From Hylemonella sp. (GTDB lineage Bacteria > Pseudomonadota > Gammaproteobacteria > Burkholderiales > Burkholderiaceae_C), in assembly GCA_044376885.1 (NCBI GenBank), contig JBILKC010000001.1:1-29276 (forward strand): DNA of 29,276 bases. The letters run 5' to 3'. Numbering within the stretch: position 1 is the first letter of the stretch; every line of letters begins with the position of its first letter. Made by a program: the position numbers and the translations under genes. The notes below the pieces were generated by a model that did no database searches, was not told the origin of the DNA, and saw nothing but the letters and a program-made list of their open reading frames with translations. Shown here one piece after another: positions 15,896 through 23,467 of the stretch.

Positions 15896-16384
15896 CTACT
15901 TTGAAACAGGAAGGCGCGCGATTTCACGCCGGATGCCACCGATGTCACTCTCCAGCCGGTCCAGGCCTAGTTTGAGTTCAGCCACCCGGTCAAGGTACTT
16001 TTGGTGGTTACGCGTCTCCGGGCCCAGCTTGTCAGGCTCGCCGTTGTTGTATTCCCGCAGAAGCTCATCGCGGCGGGCTTCTGCGCGTTTCAACTCAGAC
16101 TCAAGAATCAGCCGGGTATCGGAGTCGCGCGAGCGCTGGTCGATGCCATCCCCACGCGGCGCAGCGGGTCCGGTGTTGGCCACTCGGGCAGGTGCAGGTA
16201 CAACTGGCGGACGTTGGCCCTGAACCACCGTGACATTGCCGCCTTCGAGCAATTGACAACTGCCCTTCTGCGCCTCGGTAATGGTGTTGGTGTACGCATT
16301 GCCGCATCGGTAAATTCGGTTTTGTGCCTGCACATTGGCAACAGCCACTAGGGCAGCGAGAAGAATCAGTAAAACATGTTTCAT
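15896..16384 (-). CDS. Secreted hypothetical protein (DUF4124-like N-terminus, coiled-coil C-terminus)
   Basis: Signal peptide MKHVLLILLAALVAVANVQA, then IYRCGNAYTN, a Pro-rich linker and a helical C-terminus. Confidence 0.8.
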   Translation of the reverse strand: MKHVLLILLAALVAVANVQAQNRIYRCGNAYTNTITEAQKGSCQLLEGGNVTVVQGQRPPVVPAPARVANTGPAAPRGDGIDQRSRDSDTRLILESELKRAEARRDELLREYNNGEPDKLGPETRNHQKYLDRVAELKLGLDRLESDIGGIRREIARLPVSK

Positions 16385-16422
16385 GATGTGTTTACGCACC
16401 CATCAAGGCGGGGCGTCTGGCC

Positions 16423-16539: not shown

Positions 16540-17955
16540 TTAGAGTGAATAGTACATGTCGTACTCAACAGGATGCGGTGCCATACGGAAACGCGTGACT
16601 TCTGTCATTTTGAGCTCGATATAGGCATCGAGCATGGAATCGGTAAACACGCCGCCTTTGGTCAGGAAACTGCGATCCTTGTCAAGATACTCCAGCGCCT
16701 GATCAAGGCTGTGGCAAACGGTTGGAACTTTTGCATCTTCCTCGGGAGGCAAATGGTACAGGTCCTTGGTGGCGGCTTCGCCGGGATGGATCTTGTTTTC
16801 CACGCCATCCAGACCAGCCATCATCAATGCCGAGAAGCACAGGTAGGGGTTGGCAGACGGATCGGGAAAGCGCGTCTCAATGCGACGGCCTTTGGGGTTG
16901 GCCACAAAGGGAATACGCACCGAAGCCGAGCGATTGCGTGAGCTGTAGGCCAGTTTCACAGGAGCCTCAAAACCGGGGACCAAGCGCTTGTAGCTGTTGG
17001 TGCCTGGATTGGTAATGGCGTTGAGCGCACGTGCGTGCTTGATCACGCCACCAATGTAATACAGGGCAAAGTCGGACAAACCAGCATAGCCGTCACCCGC
17101 AAACAGGTTTTTGCCGTCTTTCCAGATGGACTGGTGCACGTGCATGCCGCTTCCGTTGTCGCCAGCGTAGGGCTTGGGCATGAAGGTGGCAGTTTTGCCA
17201 TACGCATTGGCCACATTCCAGACCACATACTTGAGCACCTGGGTCCAATCGGCGCGCTGCACCAGCGTGCTGAACTTGGTGCCGATCTCGTTTTGACCGG
17301 CGCCCGCCACTTCGTGGTGGAACACCTCAACCGGAATGCCCAGGGATTCAAGAATCAGGGACATCTCAGCGCGCATGTCCTGGGTGCTGTCAACGGGAGG
17401 TACGGGGAAGTAACCTCCTTTGACCGTAGGACGGTGGCCGCGGTTGCCGCCTTCAAGCTTGGCACCGGTATTCCAGGGAGCTTCGTACTCTTCAATTTCA
17501 AAACCGACTTTGCCGGGATCGTTGGACCAGCGCACGCCATCAAAAATAAAGAACTCGGGTTCGGGGCCAAAAAATGCGGTATCGCCCAGACCTGAGGCTT
17601 TCAGGTAAGCCTCTGCGCGCTTGGCAATGGAACGGGGATCACGGTCGTAGGCTTTGCCATCGCTGGGCTCTACCACATCACAGCTCATGAACATCGTGGT
17701 TTCTTCAAAGAAGGGGTCGATGTTGGCGGTGTTGGGATCGGGCATGAGCTGCATGTCTGATGCTTCAATGCCTTTCCATCCGGCAATCGAGGAACCGTCA
17801 AACGCATGGCCTGAGGTGAACTTATCTTCATCAAAGTGCGACACCGGCACCGTGACGTGCTGCTCTTTGCCGCGGGTATCGGTGAAGCGGAAGTCAACAA
17901 ACTTGACTTCGTTTTCTTTCACCATCTTCATTACGTCTGCGACGGTCTTGGCCAT
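16540..17955 (-). CDS. glnA: Glutamine synthetase type I
   Basis: [41 protein letters not shown], adenylylation loop TKDLYHL; SD GGAG. Confidence 0.98.
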
Positions 17956-18007: not shown

Positions 18008-18023
18008 TGCAGTTTTTGTGCCA
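18008..18023 (-). promoter_or_regulatory. Sigma54 (-24/-12) promoter of glnA
   Basis: Minus strand TGGCACAAAAACTGCA: GG-N10-GC with TGGCAC core. Confidence 0.85.
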
Positions 18024-18183: not shown

Positions 18184-19035
18184 TTAATTTCGCACCAATT
18201 CAGGGCCAAGCTTGCATCCATCTGCCGACAAGCTTGCAAACATGGCTGAATAAGCCGGTTCAACATGCGAAATCAGGCCCTTGACGCCCAGTTCGATGTG
18301 ACGCCCGTACTCCGGGTGATCCACGCTGGGCAAGCTGAACACCTTGATGTTCGGATAGTTGCGCTCAAGGACTTCCATCAAGGGCGTCAGGTTCGACTCC
18401 ATGGCGCCCAGCACAATCACCGATTTCTCCACCCAGGCGGCCGTTTGAAAGAACGCGCTGTAGTGTGTGTCCAGTGTTGCTGCCACCATCGGCCAGGCCA
18501 TCACCGGAAAGCCCGGCACGAAATGCACAACGCCCCCTAGGGGGGAACGGCAGCTAAAGCCGGGTATCTTGTTATACGGGTTCGCAATGATCTCGGCCCC
18601 GACCGGAAAGACCCCCATGTTGAGCCGGTGAATGTTGTCAGCCCGGTCCGGGTTGTAAGGAACACCCTGCTCCAGAGCGACCTCTTTGATGCGTTCCCGA
18701 ATCAGCAACTCGGCCTGTGGGTGTAGCACCAGATCGGTGCCCAGCGCCCGGGCAGCACACTGGCGCGTGTGGTCGTCGGGTGTGGCGCCAATGCCGCCGC
18801 AGGAAAACACCACGTCGCCAGATTCAAATGCGCGCTTGAGTGTGGCGGTAATACGATCTGGTGAATCCCCAACGTAATCTGCATAACTGAGTTGCAAACC
18901 GCGCTCGTGCAGCAGTTCTATGACTTTGGGCAGGTGTTTGTCTACGCGCTTGCCGGAAAGAATTTCATCGCCAATGATGATCAATCCAAAAACCGGCGTT
19001 TCTGAAGTGGGCTTAGGGGTGCTGGGGTGTGTCAT
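18184..19035 (-). CDS. Molybdopterin-binding-domain protein (CinA N-terminal / COG1058-like)
   Basis: IIIGDEILSGKR, GGIGATPDDHT, NPYNKIPGF, FVPGFPVMAWPM; no CinA C-terminal deamidase domain. Confidence 0.88.
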   Translation of the reverse strand: MTHPSTPKPTSETPVFGLIIIGDEILSGKRVDKHLPKVIELLHERGLQLSYADYVGDSPDRITATLKRAFESGDVVFSCGGIGATPDDHTRQCAARALGTDLVLHPQAELLIRERIKEVALEQGVPYNPDRADNIHRLNMGVFPVGAEIIANPYNKIPGFSCRSPLGGVVHFVPGFPVMAWPMVAATLDTHYSAFFQTAAWVEKSVIVLGAMESNLTPLMEVLERNYPNIKVFSLPSVDHPEYGRHIELGVKGLISHVEPAYSAMFASLSADGCKLGPELVRN

Positions 19036-19867
19036 GCTGCAATGCTAACGGCTCAGAAGAAGGGGGAGGCGTGTTCTGGTCACGAACCAGAACCAGGGCA
19101 GCCAGGCAGAAATGGGCAAACCACAACGCCGAGAAAACAAATACCAGGGTGTAGAGCAATATCGCCAACGGCACCATCAGGGGGGCCATAACGACTGCCG
19201 CCGCGCCAAATGTAAACACCAGTGCAGGTGCCGACCCCAGATAAGCAGTCAGGACACCAATGGCCAATAACCACAAACGATGCTGTTGCATGACTTCAAT
19301 CCGCTCAGCTTGTGTTGCATGGGCGGCCAGCACATCAAAGCTCATCACCCGGTAGGTCAACCAGCCCCAGACCAGGGGAGGCAGAATCATGATGAGCGGC
19401 GGAATGAACCACAGGGGCATTGAAATCACCAGCGCAAGGATTGCGAGCACCGAAGAGCTCAGCCCCAACCACAGGCTGGGCCACAGGGTACTGCCAGGCT
19501 GTGCCTGAAGAGTTGGGAAGCGCCGTTTAGCCACCAGCGTCACCAAGGGAGGCATCAGTATCCAGGTGACCAGCAGCAGCGTGATCATGATGATCAACGG
19601 AATTGCCAGACACAAAACAATGAATGGCGCGAGCACATTGCGCAGACTCTGCCCCCCCACGGCATCCAGCCACTTCAGAAAGGTCTCCAGCAAAGCCAGT
19701 TGACCCACCCATTGCTGCACGGCATTGACGGCAGGCTCCCAGAAAAAGTAGCTGAGCGCACTGCCGAGCCCCACCATCAACAGCTGGGGCACCAACAACA
19801 AGACCATGACCCGCGGGTGCAGACAATACCCCAATGCACGCCAGAAAGAGTCCATGAACAAGCTCAT
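19013..19867 (-). CDS. EI24/CysZ-like membrane protein
   Basis: SFWRALGYCLHP, VAKRRFPTL, WGWLTYRVMSFDVLAAHA; multiple hydrophobic helices; ATGA overlap with the desaturase stop. Confidence 0.82.
   Translation of the reverse strand: MSLFMDSFWRALGYCLHPRVMVLLLVPQLLMVGLGSALSYFFWEPAVNAVQQWVGQLALLETFLKWLDAVGGQSLRNVLAPFIVLCLAIPLIIMITLLLVTWILMPPLVTLVAKRRFPTLQAQPGSTLWPSLWLGLSSSVLAILALVISMPLWFIPPLIMILPPLVWGWLTYRVMSFDVLAAHATQAERIEVMQQHRLWLLAIGVLTAYLGSAPALVFTFGAAAVVMAPLMVPLAILLYTLVFVFSALWFAHFCLAALVLVRDQNTPPPSSEPLALQHDTPQHP
19036..19050 (-). promoter_or_regulatory. Candidate -10 directly before the COG1058-like gene start (leaderless-type)
   Basis: Minus strand TAGCAT-TGCAGC-ATG; no SD; lies inside the EI24 3' end. 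Confidence 0.4.
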
Positions 19868-20820
19868 GCGCGACCCATCAGACGTAACACGCCCTGCCAT
19901 TGTTGAGACCAGAAACCCCGGCCATACTCACGCCCCTGTTCGACCTGGTCACGCACGCCGGTCGGTTCAAAACGACGCTCAAAGTTGGCGGTGCCCCAGA
20001 GCATGTCCCACCACGGGAACAACACCCCGAAATTGCAACCACCCAGGGTCTGGCGACCACCCGACTCGTGTCCCACGCCTATGCTGTGGTGCATGCGATG
20101 AAAGCGGGGGCTGACCCACAGCCGCTCACCCCAGCGGCCGAACCAGAGCCTCAGATTGGCATGCTGAAAGTTTTCACTGAGCTGGGTGATTGCGACAATT
20201 GCCACAAACTGCCCCGGTGCCACGCCGATGAGGTGGGCCAGGGCCACCAGGAGCAGGTCGCGGATCAGGTCATCAAGCAGGTGGTTGCGGTTGTCGCTCC
20301 ACATCGTCATCTGGCGCTGGGCATGGTGCAAGGCATGCAGTCGCCACCACCATTCAAGATGGTGCTGGCCGCGATGAATCCAGTAATCGGCAAGATCAAA
20401 AACCAGCAGGTAGATCAGCAAACTCACCAGCGGCAGATCGGTCAGTCCCGGCACCAGGTCATCCAGTTGAAACGTGCCCAGACCGGCCACTCGCATCAGC
20501 CCAAAAAAGTCATCGACCAGCGGCGTGACAGCAAAAAACATCACCAGCCTGAACAGCCCCAGCCGGTGGATCAACGTGTAAATCATGTCGGTGCGCACGG
20601 TGGCTCTGTCGGTCACGGCTTCAACCGGCCACAAGCGCTGCAGCGGGCCGATCAGGCATACCAGAACCAGCAACTGAATAGCCCCGACCAGCAGCCAGCC
20701 TGTGGCATCAAAGGCATCCTCCAGTCGACCGCCCAGACCCATCTTGAACACCAGCGGGCCCACAACCGACTCGAACAAGCCTTGCTGCAGCTCTGAGAAC
20801 AGATTGATCCAGTCGTTCAT
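19864..20820 (-). CDS. Sterol desaturase / fatty-acid hydroxylase family (membrane di-iron enzyme)
   Basis: His boxes YWIHRGQH, LHALHH, FQHAN, HRMHH; NFGVLFPWWDMLWGT. Start 20820 or TTG 20838. Confidence 0.9.
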   Translation of the reverse strand: MNDWINLFSELQQGLFESVVGPLVFKMGLGGRLEDAFDATGWLLVGAIQLLVLVCLIGPLQRLWPVEAVTDRATVRTDMIYTLIHRLGLFRLVMFFAVTPLVDDFFGLMRVAGLGTFQLDDLVPGLTDLPLVSLLIYLLVFDLADYWIHRGQHHLEWWWRLHALHHAQRQMTMWSDNRNHLLDDLIRDLLLVALAHLIGVAPGQFVAIVAITQLSENFQHANLRLWFGRWGERLWVSPRFHRMHHSIGVGHESGGRQTLGGCNFGVLFPWWDMLWGTANFERRFEPTGVRDQVEQGREYGRGFWSQQWQGVLRLMGRA

Positions 20821-20838
20821 GTCTTCATCACACCACAA

Positions 20839-21663
20839 CTAACGCGGAAACTGACTCAGCCAGGCCTGATAGGACGGGTGGGTACGCAGGGTCTGAAAGC
20901 AAAAACCACGTTCTTTGAGCCCCACAATCAGCGGCTCCAGAACACCGGGTGCCCAGGGGTCTTGTCTTGACCAGATGCCCAGATGCGCCATCAAAATGTC
21001 ACCGCTGCGAATGTCCTGCAAGGCACGGCGCAACAGCGTCGTATTGCTGAACTTGTCGCTGGGCAATTCATCACCCAAAAAACCTGCCGCAGCCCACGCC
21101 ACGTGCTCAAACCCGCAGTCACGGGCAGCCTTGAGCAAAGCGGGCGATGTTTTGCCGCCTGGGGCACGAAAAAGCGGCAATGTTTTTTTACCGGTAACCG
21201 CTTCCAGCCGCAGCGCTGCATCCTGAATGGCGCTGCAGTATTGGCGGGCATCCCACACCATGTCTTGCCCGGCCAAGGCTCCCGCACTGGGGCGCACCCG
21301 AAAACGAGCCTCAGACGCGTCAGGGGTGCTGACATCCGCACGCCAGTAGACATGGTCCAGCGTGTGCGAGGCAAACTCATGGCCCTCTGCGGCTCTGGCT
21401 TTCCACCAGGGTGCCCAGTACTCGCCCAGACTGCCGTCCCCCTGGCGGGTACGCTCCTGGGCACCAAAAAAGGTGGCACGCACCTGCTGGCGCGTCAGCA
21501 CCTCAGCCACCAGATCCGCCACACCCATGTGGCCGGTATCAAACGTCAGATACACCGGTTTCTTACAAGATAATTCGCCTTTAGCCCATGAAGGTAAAGG
21601 GTTTATAGCTACAAATGTTATAGCTATAAGGAATTTCAGGAAGGCATTATTGGCGCGGCGCAT
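20839..21663 (-). CDS. Exported polysaccharide deacetylase (CE4/NodB-like)
   Basis: Signal-like N-terminus; YLTFDTG, ATFF, FASHTLDH, FRAPGG, DILMAH. Confidence 0.87.
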   Translation of the reverse strand: MRRANNAFLKFLIAITFVAINPLPSWAKGELSCKKPVYLTFDTGHMGVADLVAEVLTRQQVRATFFGAQERTRQGDGSLGEYWAPWWKARAAEGHEFASHTLDHVYWRADVSTPDASEARFRVRPSAGALAGQDMVWDARQYCSAIQDAALRLEAVTGKKTLPLFRAPGGKTSPALLKAARDCGFEHVAWAAAGFLGDELPSDKFSNTTLLRRALQDIRSGDILMAHLGIWSRQDPWAPGVLEPLIVGLKERGFCFQTLRTHPSYQAWLSQFPR

Positions 21664-22627
21664 GGTCCAGCGTCCAAACCCCATGGGGGGATTTACCCAC
21701 CTTGACCTGACGCACCACCTGGCGCGTCGTGGTGTCGATCACCGTGAGCCGCTTGGCCCAGCGGGATGTGACGTAGAGAAACCGGCCATCTTTGGACACA
21801 TCCATGCAATCGGGCCCGCTGGGGGCGGCGAAAGTATCAACCGTGGTGAGTGTCGCGAGGTTGATCTTGCTGATGGAGTCGGCCACCCGGTTGCTGACAA
21901 AGACGTGCTTGGCATCGCCTGCAGCGCGAAACGCATGAGCGCCCTTGCCGGTCTCGATAGTTTTGACCAGCTTAGGATCGGCACCGGTTGCGTCATAGAC
22001 CTCCACACCATTGCTGCCGGTCAACCCCACCAGAATCAGCCTGTCATCGGCGGTGCCAAAAACATCCGCGGGCATCTGGCCGGTTTTGACGCGCGACTTC
22101 ACCGCCTGCAAAGCCAGATCGATCACCACCAGCTCGTTGCTGTCCTGCATGGTCACATACACCACCGTGCTGCGCGTATCAATCCACAAATGGCTGGGCG
22201 TCTTGCCGGTTGCAATCCGCTTGGCCAAATGAAAATCCTTGCCGTCCCAGCGATAAATATCGACGTGGTTGAGCCGGTTGGCAGCAGTCACAAACCATTT
22301 CATGTCGGGAGAAAAGCGCAGGTGGTAGGGATCCACAATGCCACGCACGGTACGCTGCACTTCAGCGGTTTTAGGGTCAAGAAAAGTCAGGGAGTCGCTG
22401 GCGGCATTGGCCACAATAAGGGATTTTTCGTCAGGTGTCAGGTACAGATGATGCGGCTCTTTACCGGTAGGAATGCGCCGGATTTCGGTCCATGTGTCCG
22501 GGTTGATCACACTCACATTGGCATCCAGCGAGTTCAGCACAAACAGGGGGTAAGACTGGGCCGTCACCACGGGTGCGAAGAGCCCAAGCAAAGCCAAAAC
22601 CCAGGAAAAACGAAAAATTGAGATCAC
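21647..22627 (-). CDS. Exported YVTN/YncE-type beta-propeller protein
   Basis: Signal peptide; about seven repeats (IPTGKEPHHL, IATGKTPSHL, VKTGQMPADV, IETGKGAHAF, VKVGKSPHGV). Confidence 0.88.
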   Translation of the reverse strand: MISIFRFSWVLALLGLFAPVVTAQSYPLFVLNSLDANVSVINPDTWTEIRRIPTGKEPHHLYLTPDEKSLIVANAASDSLTFLDPKTAEVQRTVRGIVDPYHLRFSPDMKWFVTAANRLNHVDIYRWDGKDFHLAKRIATGKTPSHLWIDTRSTVVYVTMQDSNELVVIDLALQAVKSRVKTGQMPADVFGTADDRLILVGLTGSNGVEVYDATGADPKLVKTIETGKGAHAFRAAGDAKHVFVSNRVADSISKINLATLTTVDTFAAPSGPDCMDVSKDGRFLYVTSRWAKRLTVIDTTTRQVVRQVKVGKSPHGVWTLDHAPRQ

Positions 22628-22726
22628 AAAAAAACCGTTTCGAAGATTGCTGTCAAGTGTAACGGGGTGCCATTCAAGCCGATGCCATGAGCCTGATGAT
22701 CATGTGGACAATTCTGCCCGGTCAAA

Positions 22727-23467
22727 TCATTTGAGCAGCAGCAGGTCAGCTGCATCGAGCCAGCGCCATTGGCCCGGTGCCATATCGGCGGGCAACTGCA
22801 AGCCACCTATGCTTGATCGGTGCAAGCCCTCGACCCGGTTACCCACCGCCGCCAGCATGCGTTTGACCTGGTGGTATTTGCCTTCGGTCAGCGTCAGCCT
22901 GAGGTGATGGCTGTCTGTTTGCTCACAGGCCGCCGCACGCACAGATTTGGGGTCGTCATCCAGCACCACACCAGCCAGCAGTTTGCTGATCTGGTTTGCA
23001 TCCAAAGCATGCTTGACCGTCACTTCATACACCTTGGGTACGTGGTGGCGCGGCGAGCTCATGCGGTGAATAAACTTGCCGTCATCGGTAAGCAACAGCA
23101 GGCCAGTGGTATCTTGGTCCAGACGGCCCACCGCCTGGACGCCCTGCACCGCTCCCTTCTGGGGCCGCATCCGCAGGGGTGTCGGCAGCAGGGTGTAAAT
23201 GCTGGGGTAGGTGGATGGCTTTTGCGAGCATTCGGTACCGGCCGGCTTGTTCAACATCAGGTAAGCCAGCGGGTGGTAGGTCCAGTCCACGCCCATCACC
23301 CGAAAGCGAAGCTGGTTTTCAGTGAGAACTTTCGCAGACTCAAGAACCGTCACAGGCTCTGTCGCGTCTTCACCCTCAAATACCTGAACCAGGCCCTGTT
23401 GGATCAGGCCTGCGCAGACCCGGCGCGTTCCAAAACCCTGTGAATAAAGAATATCTTGCAATTGCAT
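22727..23467 (-). CDS. rsuA: RsuA-family rRNA pseudouridine synthase
   Basis: LMLNKPAG, VGRLDQDTTGLLLLTDDG, LTEGKYHQVKRM, LHRSSIG. Confidence 0.9.
   Translation of the reverse strand: MQLQDILYSQGFGTRRVCAGLIQQGLVQVFEGEDATEPVTVLESAKVLTENQLRFRVMGVDWTYHPLAYLMLNKPAGTECSQKPSTYPSIYTLLPTPLRMRPQKGAVQGVQAVGRLDQDTTGLLLLTDDGKFIHRMSSPRHHVPKVYEVTVKHALDANQISKLLAGVVLDDDPKSVRAAACEQTDSHHLRLTLTEGKYHQVKRMLAAVGNRVEGLHRSSIGGLQLPADMAPGQWRWLDAADLLLLK

Follow-up and report, generated by a model that had tools for sequence, protein, structure and literature searches.

A five-gene block upstream of glnA in Hylemonella sp. as a probable juxtaposition of two independently conserved units

Five co-oriented genes are packed tightly on the minus strand upstream of glnA in Hylemonella sp., raising the question of whether they encode one pathway or two that happen to share a locus. 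The window analyzed here is the whole 29,276-nucleotide stretch of DNA from this genome; the block spans positions 18184–22627. ORF calls and sequence analysis identified the products, in order, as a YncE-like β-propeller, a deacetylase of the CE4 family, an FA_hydroxylase-family protein, an EI24 protein and a stand-alone COG1058 protein. None of our literature searches turned up a description of the cluster, and in the annotated records that we examined the proteins had no more than generic names (such as "sterol desaturase family protein," "polysaccharide deacetylase family protein" and "hypothetical protein"). The reading that we favor, and consider probable, is that the block is a lineage-specific arrangement in which two units, each conserved in its own right, stand side by side upstream of a glnA gene that is transcribed separately. 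Unit 1 (propeller, CE4 and hydroxylase) would be a self-contained envelope operon, probably for head-group modification, and unit 2 (EI24 and COG1058) would be separate in function.

Layout of the block

The first gene (21647–22627, minus strand) has a GTG start and encodes an exported, YncE-like (YVTN) seven-bladed β-propeller of 326 aa. It is followed on the same strand by the genes for an exported CE4 (NodB-fold) deacetylase of 274 aa (20839–21663, from the ATG giving MRRANNAF...) and an OlsE-like membrane di-iron enzyme of the FA_hydroxylase superfamily, 318 aa in length (19864–20820, ATG start; an alternative TTG start at 20838 abuts the CE4 stop). The remaining two genes, also on the minus strand, encode an EI24/CysZ-family polytopic membrane protein of 284 aa (19013–19867) and a stand-alone COG1058 protein (CinA N-terminal, MoCF fold) of 283 aa (18184–19035). 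The glnA gene (16540–17955, minus strand; TIGR00653, 654 bits) lies outside both units and is considered only as context.

Read from the sequence, the propeller and CE4 genes overlap by 17 nt (21663–21647), the CE4–hydroxylase gap is 0–18 nt depending on the start codon chosen, the hydroxylase and EI24 genes share an ATGA (19867–19864), and the EI24 and COG1058 genes overlap by 23 nt (19035–19013). The co-orientation and the three overlaps were as described in the initial annotation of this DNA, and Pfam agreed with the families named there for all five genes. Hydropathy also agreed with its assignment of signal peptides to the first two products and membrane location to the next two: the propeller and CE4 proteins each have a single N-terminal hydrophobic segment, while the hydroxylase has at least three transmembrane segments and EI24 at least five.

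Conservation and separation of the two units

Approximately 190 related loci were compared, most of them from related Comamonadaceae, so that the counts are not independent. In locus-order shorthand (prop, propeller; FAH, hydroxylase; CinA, the COG1058 gene), the full order rsuA-prop-CE4-FAH-EI24-CinA-glnA-orf167-ntrB was found in 56 of 80 hydroxylase-centred Comamonadaceae loci, a recurrence showing that the five-gene arrangement is not due to chance. The five-gene order is old: it was also present in Ralstonia and other Burkholderiaceae-type genomes, and it covers four to six families that fall in two of the hydroxylase tree's three main clades.

Beyond these lineages, the first three genes behaved as a unit. 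Gene order within the trio was unchanged across about 17 families of the Burkholderiales, which include the plant pathogens Ralstonia and Acidovorax. The propeller gene was directly upstream in all 38 hydroxylase-orthologue loci from 18 families, with CE4 intervening in 34; where CE4 was absent, the propeller and hydroxylase genes remained. The trio was followed by EI24 and CinA only in families f1, f276, f13 and f10, and by CinA alone in f262 and f263, where the hydroxylase gene and the COG1058 gene either touch or overlap. In ten families, the trio stood alone, with neither gene next to it. Likewise, plasmid pL11-C of the alphaproteobacterium Pseudoroseomonas cervicalis carried a YncE–CE4–sterol desaturase trio (37, 45 and 41% identity, respectively) with no EI24 or CinA gene accompanying it, and the Paraburkholderia plasmid pBN1 carried only the propeller and hydroxylase genes. 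The hydroxylase was present in 66 of the 301 genomes of the order and in one of about 398 other genomes of the class; searches elsewhere in the phylum returned nothing convincing.

Conversely, six Comamonadaceae-type genomes retained EI24-CinA-glnA with no trio alongside, and in two of these rsuA directly abuts EI24. Genome-wide searches of five of the six revealed an intact trio on a separate contig in one (G014) and no orthologue of any trio gene in the other four (G009, G003, G005 and G016), the trio having been lost as a whole. In two complete genomes, the units were far apart. In G538, the trio maps to 0.95 Mb, glnA to 2.2 Mb and EI24-CinA, still adjacent, to 3.62 Mb; in G664, the trio is at 1.06 Mb, glnA at 3.59 Mb and the pair at 3.88 Mb. 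EI24 thus stays beside the COG1058 gene where the trio is absent or megabases away. A COG1058 orthologue was found in 34 of about 248 other genomes of the class, and in 20 fetched neighbourhoods from other orders the genes alongside were unrelated and never included EI24.

The propeller, CE4 and hydroxylase genes therefore share order, strand, tight junctions and all-or-none occurrence across families, as expected of a three-gene operon, whereas the five genes do not stay together across lineages as a single module would, the trio and the pair being found apart or alone in many genomes. The neighbourhood comparison across Burkholderiales that the initial annotation had called for showed that the trio and the pair are separable. 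Of the single envelope system that it had proposed, the first three genes stand as a conserved unit, down to the alphaproteobacterial plasmid, but EI24 and COG1058 fall outside: the pair persists far from the trio or in its absence, and in most relatives is itself preceded by a promoter-like element.

The junctions gave a similar picture. Since the starts in the relatives were placed through alignment offsets, the gap figures are approximate. Over about 100 loci, the median gap was −1 nt from propeller to CE4 and 9 nt from CE4 to hydroxylase. From hydroxylase to EI24 the median was 39 nt, with an overlap in only 3 of 99 loci, and from EI24 to CinA it was −4 nt, with an overlap in 73 of 95. The ATGA overlap of the hydroxylase and EI24 genes is thus peculiar to the genus of this Hylemonella sp. 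A −10-like TACACT (GCTACACT in relatives) at 22656–22661 on the minus strand, 28 nt before the propeller start, is conserved; of 88 Comamonadaceae-type loci, 51 had the element ahead of the propeller gene, compared with 1.6 in shuffled sequences, and it was absent from every other junction. In 70 of 105 loci, including 3 of the 5 trio-less loci examined, a TATGCT-type −10-like hexamer lies 6–9 nt upstream of the ATG of EI24; it was seen at no other junction. In this window, no terminator-like site or recognisable promoter was found between the units, and all five genes are therefore probably co-transcribed here, the spacer between the units having collapsed to the ATGA overlap in this genus. 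Such a local fusion does not demonstrate that the units belong to one pathway. Some selection for holding the two units together is possible, given the age of the five-gene order and the adjacency of the COG1058 and hydroxylase genes in f262 and f263.

The proximity of glnA had suggested a link to nitrogen, which did not hold. A sigma-54 promoter, TGGCAC-N5-CTGCA, is located at 18008–18023 on the minus strand, 53 nt before the glnA ATG at 17955, and matches TGGCACNNNNNYTGCW exactly. This promoter sets the downstream boundary of the block. The spacer between CinA and glnA had a median length of 208 nt and exceeded 100 nt in all 85 loci; in Ralstonia, a divergent sulfurtransferase gene lies between the two, and glnA was 0.3–2.5 Mb from the trio in complete genomes. 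Neither unit shows a link to glnA.

Predicted activities and the role of the trio

The propeller matched PF21783 (YNCE) with 537.7 bits against a threshold of 27.1, placing it among the YncE-like β-propellers. Its N-terminal hydrophobic segment comprises residues 2–20, and the blade motifs GKEPHHL, PSH and SPHG are conserved. It scored below the E. coli YncE equivalog NF052280 (58.4 bits against a cut-off of 400), and the PQQ-catabolism-associated family TIGR03866 was rejected on its score (122 versus 287 bits). The CE4 protein (PF01522, 63.8 bits, threshold 23.1) has the catalytic Asp, the H(S/T)xxH ligands, the RxPxG Arg and the LxH His of CE4 carbohydrate esterases, with D42, H100, T101, H104, R166 and H227 invariant and four Cys conserved. 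The second Asp of the TFDD motif is replaced by Thr, a position at which PdaA-type enzymes have Asn. The predicted structure (pLDDT 89.8) matched CE4 enzymes in general, with E-values of about 1e-11 to 1e-12, and no equivalog cut-off was reached (PdaA, 50.1 versus 298 bits; NodB, 37.1 versus 240; HfsH, 17.7 versus 400).

The hydroxylase matched PF04116 with 97.7 bits (threshold 31) and has the three His boxes of the FA_hydroxylase/sterol desaturase superfamily (HX3-4H, HX2-3HH, HX2-3HH) at H149/H153, H162/H165/H166 and H241/H244/H245, invariant in 30 orthologues. Its sole NCBIfam match was OlsE (NF052566), aligned over the full length with 60.4–60.5 bits against a cut-off of 475, and its best Swiss-Prot fold match was also OlsE (F2VS69; E 2.2e-10, TM 0.67, residues 1–318). 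As an OlsE orthologue, the protein was rejected on the NCBIfam score.

For the pair, EI24 matched PF07264 with 98 bits (threshold 32), the domain covering residues 19–230 of the longest ORF; no NCBIfam model, and hence no curated CysZ model, matched at E 10. The COG1058 protein matched PF00994 with 93.7 bits, together with CinA-related NCBIfam models, every one of them below its cut-off, and the PDB entries 6MR3, 3KBQ (Ta0487) and 8RON, an FAD synthase isoform 2. COG1058 proteins have an MoCF fold with the signatures GXEX3G and GGL/IGPX3D (PMC3680494). Here, GDEILSG fits exactly and GGIGATPDD fits except for a Pro to Ala change, both motifs being invariant in 41 orthologues, which places the protein in the family. 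Hydropathy showed no signal peptide and no transmembrane segment, and the family consists of cytoplasmic ADP-ribose/dinucleotide pyrophosphatases (PMC3680494). On both grounds, it is not an envelope protein, although it had been included in the suggested envelope module; it is probably a cytoplasmic nucleotide pyrophosphatase, as judged from its sequence. Unit 2 would then pair a membrane protein with a cytoplasmic enzyme.

In unit 1, we propose that an inner-membrane OlsE-like di-iron oxygenase works with the seven-bladed propeller as its obligate periplasmic partner, while the periplasmic CE4 de-N/O-acetylase would be a frequent but dispensable third component. Together, these proteins most likely modify a lipid or glycolipid anchored in the membrane, hydroxylating its polar head group with or without deacetylation. 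The initial annotation had likewise named a lipid or glycolipid substrate, and this is still a reasonable guess, because the nearest characterised relative of the hydroxylase is an amino-lipid head-group hydroxylase; the trio is, however, also found in genomes without OlsB, and the relatives of CE4 act on glycans.

Three alternatives were weighed against this proposal. That the five proteins form one periplasm/inner-membrane pathway for a single envelope substrate, with EI24 as transporter or scaffold, COG1058 as a further component and a possible nitrogen link through glnA, would account for the overlapping, co-oriented genes, the order kept in most Comamonadaceae loci, in Ralstonia and other Burkholderiaceae-type genomes and in two hydroxylase clades, and the contact between CinA and the hydroxylase gene in f262 and f263. 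We nevertheless consider it unlikely: the trio lacks the pair in ten families and on two plasmids, the pair occurs without the trio, and the units can be megabases apart. In addition, the hydroxylase–EI24 junction is the least tight of the four and has a promoter-like element, the COG1058 protein lacks an export signal and comes from a cytoplasmic family, and glnA, with a sigma-54 promoter of its own, is not linked in other families. Somewhat less probable still is that the substrate of the trio is a glycan or small molecule of the periplasm, as in peptidoglycan/MurNAc remodelling, the processing of chitooligosaccharides or the breakdown of exogenous acylated compounds, with a lactonase-like propeller. 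The closest sequence relatives of CE4 are PdaA-type MurNAc deacetylases, which share its YLTFDxG motif, and the structures matched by its fold are deacetylases of the peptidoglycan, xylan and NodB types, whose substrates (peptidoglycan, chitooligosaccharides and xylan) are glycans, not lipids. The propeller also matched Pfam Lactonase (58.5 bits), and the Paraburkholderia copy, called a "beta-propeller fold lactonase family protein" by PGAP, lies among sugar-acid catabolism genes. However, the characterised relatives matched by the FA_hydroxylase model all act on lipids or sterols, the glycan-type enzyme is dispensable, since the propeller and hydroxylase persist without CE4, and the genes on either side are unrelated and of the housekeeping kind, none of them for transport or catabolism.

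An ornithine-lipid modification system, in which the hydroxylase is a functional equivalent of OlsE acting on the ornithine head group and CE4 and the propeller are accessory, appears very improbable. It is in keeping with the OlsE matches, and G000 and four further trio genomes encode an OlsB-type PF13444 acyltransferase, but the hydroxylase falls far short of the OlsE cut-off. OlsB also showed no enrichment, being present in 49 of 66 trio-positive and 153 of 235 trio-negative genomes by a hand tally, and the OlsB/OlsF-type context expected for OlsE was not found throughout the trio genomes. By a tally of the match listings at E 1e-15, OlsB-type PF13444 was absent from 17 of the 66. Family f8 has the trio in five of six genomes and OlsB in none, and in five trio genomes (92–100% complete) nothing matched PF13444 convincingly even at E 0.01, where the matches were only at the level of control genomes (E. 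coli and others). The trio shows no dependence on OlsB, and the substrate cannot be set as ornithine lipid, because the trio also occurs in genomes that lack this enzyme.

Dividing the block into a mobile, all-or-none trio and a separate pair shows experimenters which genes to delete together, and removes a misleading association with nitrogen metabolism. If the trio does modify a membrane lipid or glycolipid, it would represent a new hydroxylase system for bacterial envelope biology and would assign a YncE-type propeller, for the first time, a function as partner to a membrane enzyme.

Comparison with known systems

We suggest, tentatively, that the trio is an undescribed Burkholderiales system for envelope-lipid head groups, in which a propeller-dependent OlsE-like hydroxylase acts on a substrate other than ornithine lipid (e.g., a glycolipid or a CE4-deacetylated lipid-linked amino sugar), and that EI24 and COG1058 are a new membrane-coupled nucleotide-pyrophosphatase pair. 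OlsE, the ornithine-lipid C4 head-group hydroxylase of Rhizobium tropici, belongs to the same superfamily as the hydroxylase and resembles it in its three His boxes, length and N-terminal transmembrane architecture. The two are, however, only 20% identical (60 versus 475 bits), and the trio gene, which also occurs in genomes without an OlsB-type synthase, always follows a gene for a periplasmic propeller; a review of ornithine lipids mentions no propeller partner for OlsE (PMC12971839). The propeller is a periplasmic seven-bladed YVTN protein like E. coli YncE and the PQQ-catabolism-associated propellers (3VGZ, 7SEU; PF21783), but scores below both cut-offs and is tied genetically to a membrane hydroxylase. 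CE4 has the same NodB fold, catalytic Asp, H-x3-H metal ligands, Arg and acid His as PdaA (1W17/1NY1), B. anthracis 2J13, the peptidoglycan GlcNAc deacetylases, NodB and ArnD, and has YLTFDxG in common with the PdaA type. It differs in reaching no subfamily cut-off, in the Thr of its DD motif, in its four conserved Cys, and in being an exported proteobacterial protein encoded between propeller and lipid-hydroxylase genes.

EI24 shares its Pfam domain and polytopic character with the CysZ/EI24 family (PF07264), but has no NCBIfam CysZ match, no solved relative by sequence and no tie to sulfate uptake. Finally, the COG1058 protein has the MoCF fold, the GXEX3G and GGIG...D signatures and the stand-alone form without PncC found among COG1058 ADP-ribose pyrophosphatases (the stand-alone A. 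tumefaciens enzyme, Ta0487/3KBQ and the CinA N-terminal domain; PMC3680494). It differs from these in the Pro to Ala change in the second signature, in having about 90 additional residues at the C-terminus, and in the coupling of its gene to that of an EI24-family membrane protein in Burkholderiales.

Five genes between rsuA and glnA

The initial annotation had described five co-oriented genes at 18184-22627, and both the open reading frames and the family profiles confirmed this observation. Running from 22627 down to 18184 on the minus strand, they encode a beta-propeller (21647-22627; PF21783, 537.7 bits), a CE4 deacetylase (20839-21663; PF01522, 63.8 bits), a di-iron hydroxylase (19864-20820; PF04116, 97.7 bits), an EI24 membrane protein (19013-19867; PF07264, 98 bits) and a stand-alone COG1058/CinA-N protein (18184-19035; PF00994, 93.7 bits), the last with CinA-related NCBIfam matches below cut-off. 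Overlaps of 17 nt (propeller/CE4), ATGA (hydroxylase/EI24) and 23 nt (EI24/COG1058) were also borne out, using start codons that suit the homologues. The block is flanked upstream by rsuA (22727-23467) and downstream by glnA (16540-17955), followed by a small exported ORF and then ntrB. By hydropathy, the propeller and the CE4 protein have one N-terminal hydrophobic segment each, the hydroxylase has at least three transmembrane segments and EI24 at least five; the COG1058 protein has no such segment.

Each of the five proteins falls in a known superfamily, and all score below the cut-off of any characterised equivalog. The annotated records carry only generic names for the block proteins, the ESM Atlas gave generic names or nothing, and full-text literature searches combining the names of the families turned up no paper that describes it. 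The closest relatives of the hydroxylase are in Hylemonella and Curvibacter MAGs, which places the organism in the Comamonadaceae.

The small ORF between glnA and ntrB (15896-16399, minus strand) has a hydrophobic segment at the N-terminus of its 167-aa product, and Comamonadaceae and Burkholderiaceae-type loci alike keep it in this position. In Ralstonia its annotation is DUF4124 domain-containing protein; the copy in the window had no Pfam match at E 0.01.

A trio and a pair

Gene neighbourhoods were sampled in three ways: around EI24 in 27 relatives, around the hydroxylase in 80 Comamonadaceae contigs, and around the hydroxylase in genomes from the whole order. In the EI24-centred set, most family members had the order rsuA-propeller-CE4-hydroxylase-EI24-COG1058-glnA-orf167-ntrB. 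Six of the 27 kept EI24-COG1058-glnA without an adjoining propeller-CE4-hydroxylase trio, and in two of these six rsuA directly adjoins EI24. Five of the six were searched genome-wide for the trio genes: one (G014) had an intact trio on another contig, and four (G009, G003, G005 and G016; 99-100% complete) had no orthologue of the propeller, the CE4 protein or the hydroxylase. The full nine-gene order was present in 56 of the 80 Comamonadaceae contigs, with contig ends cutting most of the others, and one Polaromonas MAG had the trio alone. The block is complete in Acidovorax sp. GW101-3H11 (L044), a strain for which there is a public RB-TnSeq fitness data set.

Of 301 genomes of the order, 66 had a hydroxylase orthologue, and these come from about 20 families. 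At 38 such loci from 18 families, the propeller gene was always directly upstream of the hydroxylase gene on the same strand (38/38), and the CE4 gene stood between them at 34. Downstream of the hydroxylase, EI24 and COG1058 together occurred only in four families and COG1058 alone in two, with nothing related in ten. Two complete genomes with a stand-alone trio (G538 and G664) still had EI24 and COG1058 adjacent to each other, 2.7-2.8 Mb away, and glnA elsewhere again. Stand-alone trios are bordered by unrelated housekeeping genes that vary by family (NUDIX, HtpG, RNA methyltransferase, malonyl-CoA decarboxylase, HD-domain protein). The idea that these loci share a conserved fourth gene was considered and rejected, as no flanking gene recurs across families.

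The proposal in the initial annotation that the five genes form a single pathway is not supported by this comparison, in which the trio and the EI24-COG1058 pair are found apart or alone. The trio is a genuine three-gene operon, conserved but uncharacterised, and in some lineages it is fused to a separate pair of genes.

A tree of the hydroxylase, with stand-alone paralogues as the root (quick IQ-TREE, moderate support), fell into three groups: loci with COG1058 downstream and EI24 present or absent; trio-only loci (18 rows, nine families); and mostly five-gene loci, with trio-only loci nested within. This spread of five-gene and trio-only loci implies that the five-gene order is old and that the two units have become unlinked several times. 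The tree shows no split within the trio, save for loss of CE4 in one clade, where a search of three genomes recovered no CE4 orthologue at any position. The Paraburkholderia plasmid pBN1 carries the propeller and hydroxylase genes only. A second hydroxylase paralogue (37-39% identity) is present in some Comamonadaceae genomes (loci L156 and L157, G702:C25 and G661:C59; also G1061); this copy is solitary, adjoining neither a propeller nor a CE4 gene.

The hydroxylase is rare outside the order, occurring in 1 of about 398 genomes of the class, with only a 35% identity match elsewhere in the phylum. In the alphaproteobacterium Pseudoroseomonas cervicalis, the 195-kb plasmid pL11-C carries an intact YncE-CE4-hydroxylase trio (37, 45 and 41% identity, respectively), without EI24 or COG1058. 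On this plasmid (NZ_CP115854.1, 1233-5948; L180), genes for an SDR oxidoreductase, a second polysaccharide deacetylase and a divergent PHB-depolymerase-family esterase lie just 5' of the trio and may be extra partners of it in that lineage. The COG1058 orthologue is far commoner than the hydroxylase outside the order (34 of about 248 other genomes of the class). Pairing of EI24 with COG1058 outside Burkholderiales was rejected (0 of 20 neighbourhoods), ferrochelatase and other genes adjoining instead. At 4 of 10 non-Burkholderiales loci examined (L166, L173, L164 and L167), the stand-alone COG1058 gene immediately follows a co-oriented ferrochelatase gene.

Junctions and promoter-like elements

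Junctions and upstream elements were compared for the transcription units that we infer for the block. Intergenic distances, which are approximate, were taken over about 100 loci. The median gap was -1 nt from propeller to CE4, 9 nt from CE4 to hydroxylase and -4 nt from EI24 to COG1058, where 73 of 95 loci overlap; from COG1058 to glnA it was 208 nt, with none below 100. At the hydroxylase/EI24 junction, the median was 39 nt and only 3 of 99 loci overlap, making the ATGA overlap of the window and its congener the exception.

A GGTATGCT/GGTATCCT hexamer lies 6-9 nt 5' of the EI24 ATG at 70 of 105 loci (including L014, L015 and L019), compared with about one in shuffles; of five loci examined that lack the trio, three have it. 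Relatives with the element include Acidovorax and Variovorax. No pattern of this type was found at five other junctions. The distance is that of a -10 element, and the sequence suggests a candidate -10 from which most relatives would make a leaderless EI24-COG1058 mRNA. The hexamer is absent from 19868-19900 in the window, this genus having lost spacer and element together.

Upstream of the propeller gene, a GCTACACT element occurs at 51 of 88 Comamonadaceae-type loci and not in other families. Its form in the window is TACACT (22661-22656, minus strand), 28 nt 5' of the propeller start, with no good -35 hexamer 17 nt from it. In E. coli, yncE is under iron regulation; for the propeller gene, an upstream Fur box was rejected, the best matches being no better than shuffles.

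The position of the block next to glnA had raised a possible link to nitrogen. An exact TGGCAC-N5-CTGCA motif is present 53 nt 5' of the glnA ATG. Nitrogen control of the block was rejected, since there is no sigma-54 motif upstream of the propeller gene and the only exact one nearby is glnA's own. In Ralstonia solanacearum, a divergent sulfurtransferase gene lies between the COG1058 gene and glnA. One R. solanacearum replicon (strain RSCM, "plasmid p-unname2", CP025986.1, 2.2 Mb; L178) bears hrpA, the five-gene block, glnA and ntrB, and its plasmid label may be worth checking.

Proposed function and characterised relatives

Our best reading is that the trio would modify a membrane-anchored lipid or glycolipid at its head group, the hydroxylase and propeller being the core of the system and CE4 an accessory, and that the EI24-COG1058 pair would have a separate job. 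The COG1058 protein bears the family signatures of ADP-ribose pyrophosphatases and has no export signal. The CE4 protein keeps the catalytic Asp, the His-His pair, the Arg and the His, and its four conserved Cys would fit an oxidising periplasm. A Tat signal was rejected: an RR pair is present, but it is unconserved and there is no canonical RRxFLK. By sequence the protein is closest to PdaA-type enzymes; by fold no subfamily was singled out, all CE4 classes scoring about equally.

An ornithine lipid as the necessary substrate is argued against by co-occurrence. Genes of the PF13444 (OlsB) type, the acyltransferase of ornithine-lipid synthesis, were present in 49 of 66 genomes with the trio and 153 of 235 without it (hand tally), showing no enrichment, and there are clear trio-positive, OlsB-negative lineages; in one family with six genomes, five have the trio and none has OlsB.

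The propeller is of the YVTN/YncE type, with conserved His-containing blade motifs, but is not the equivalog of E. coli YncE. The hydroxylase has all three His boxes (structure model pLDDT 89.6), and neither a sequence search nor Foldseek against the PDB found a solved structure for it. OlsE, which acts on ornithine lipids by hydroxylating C4 of their ornithine head group (PMC12971839), is both its only curated-family match and its best reviewed fold match; however, the hydroxylase scores 60 bits against a cut-off of 475 and is thus a relative of OlsE rather than its orthologue.
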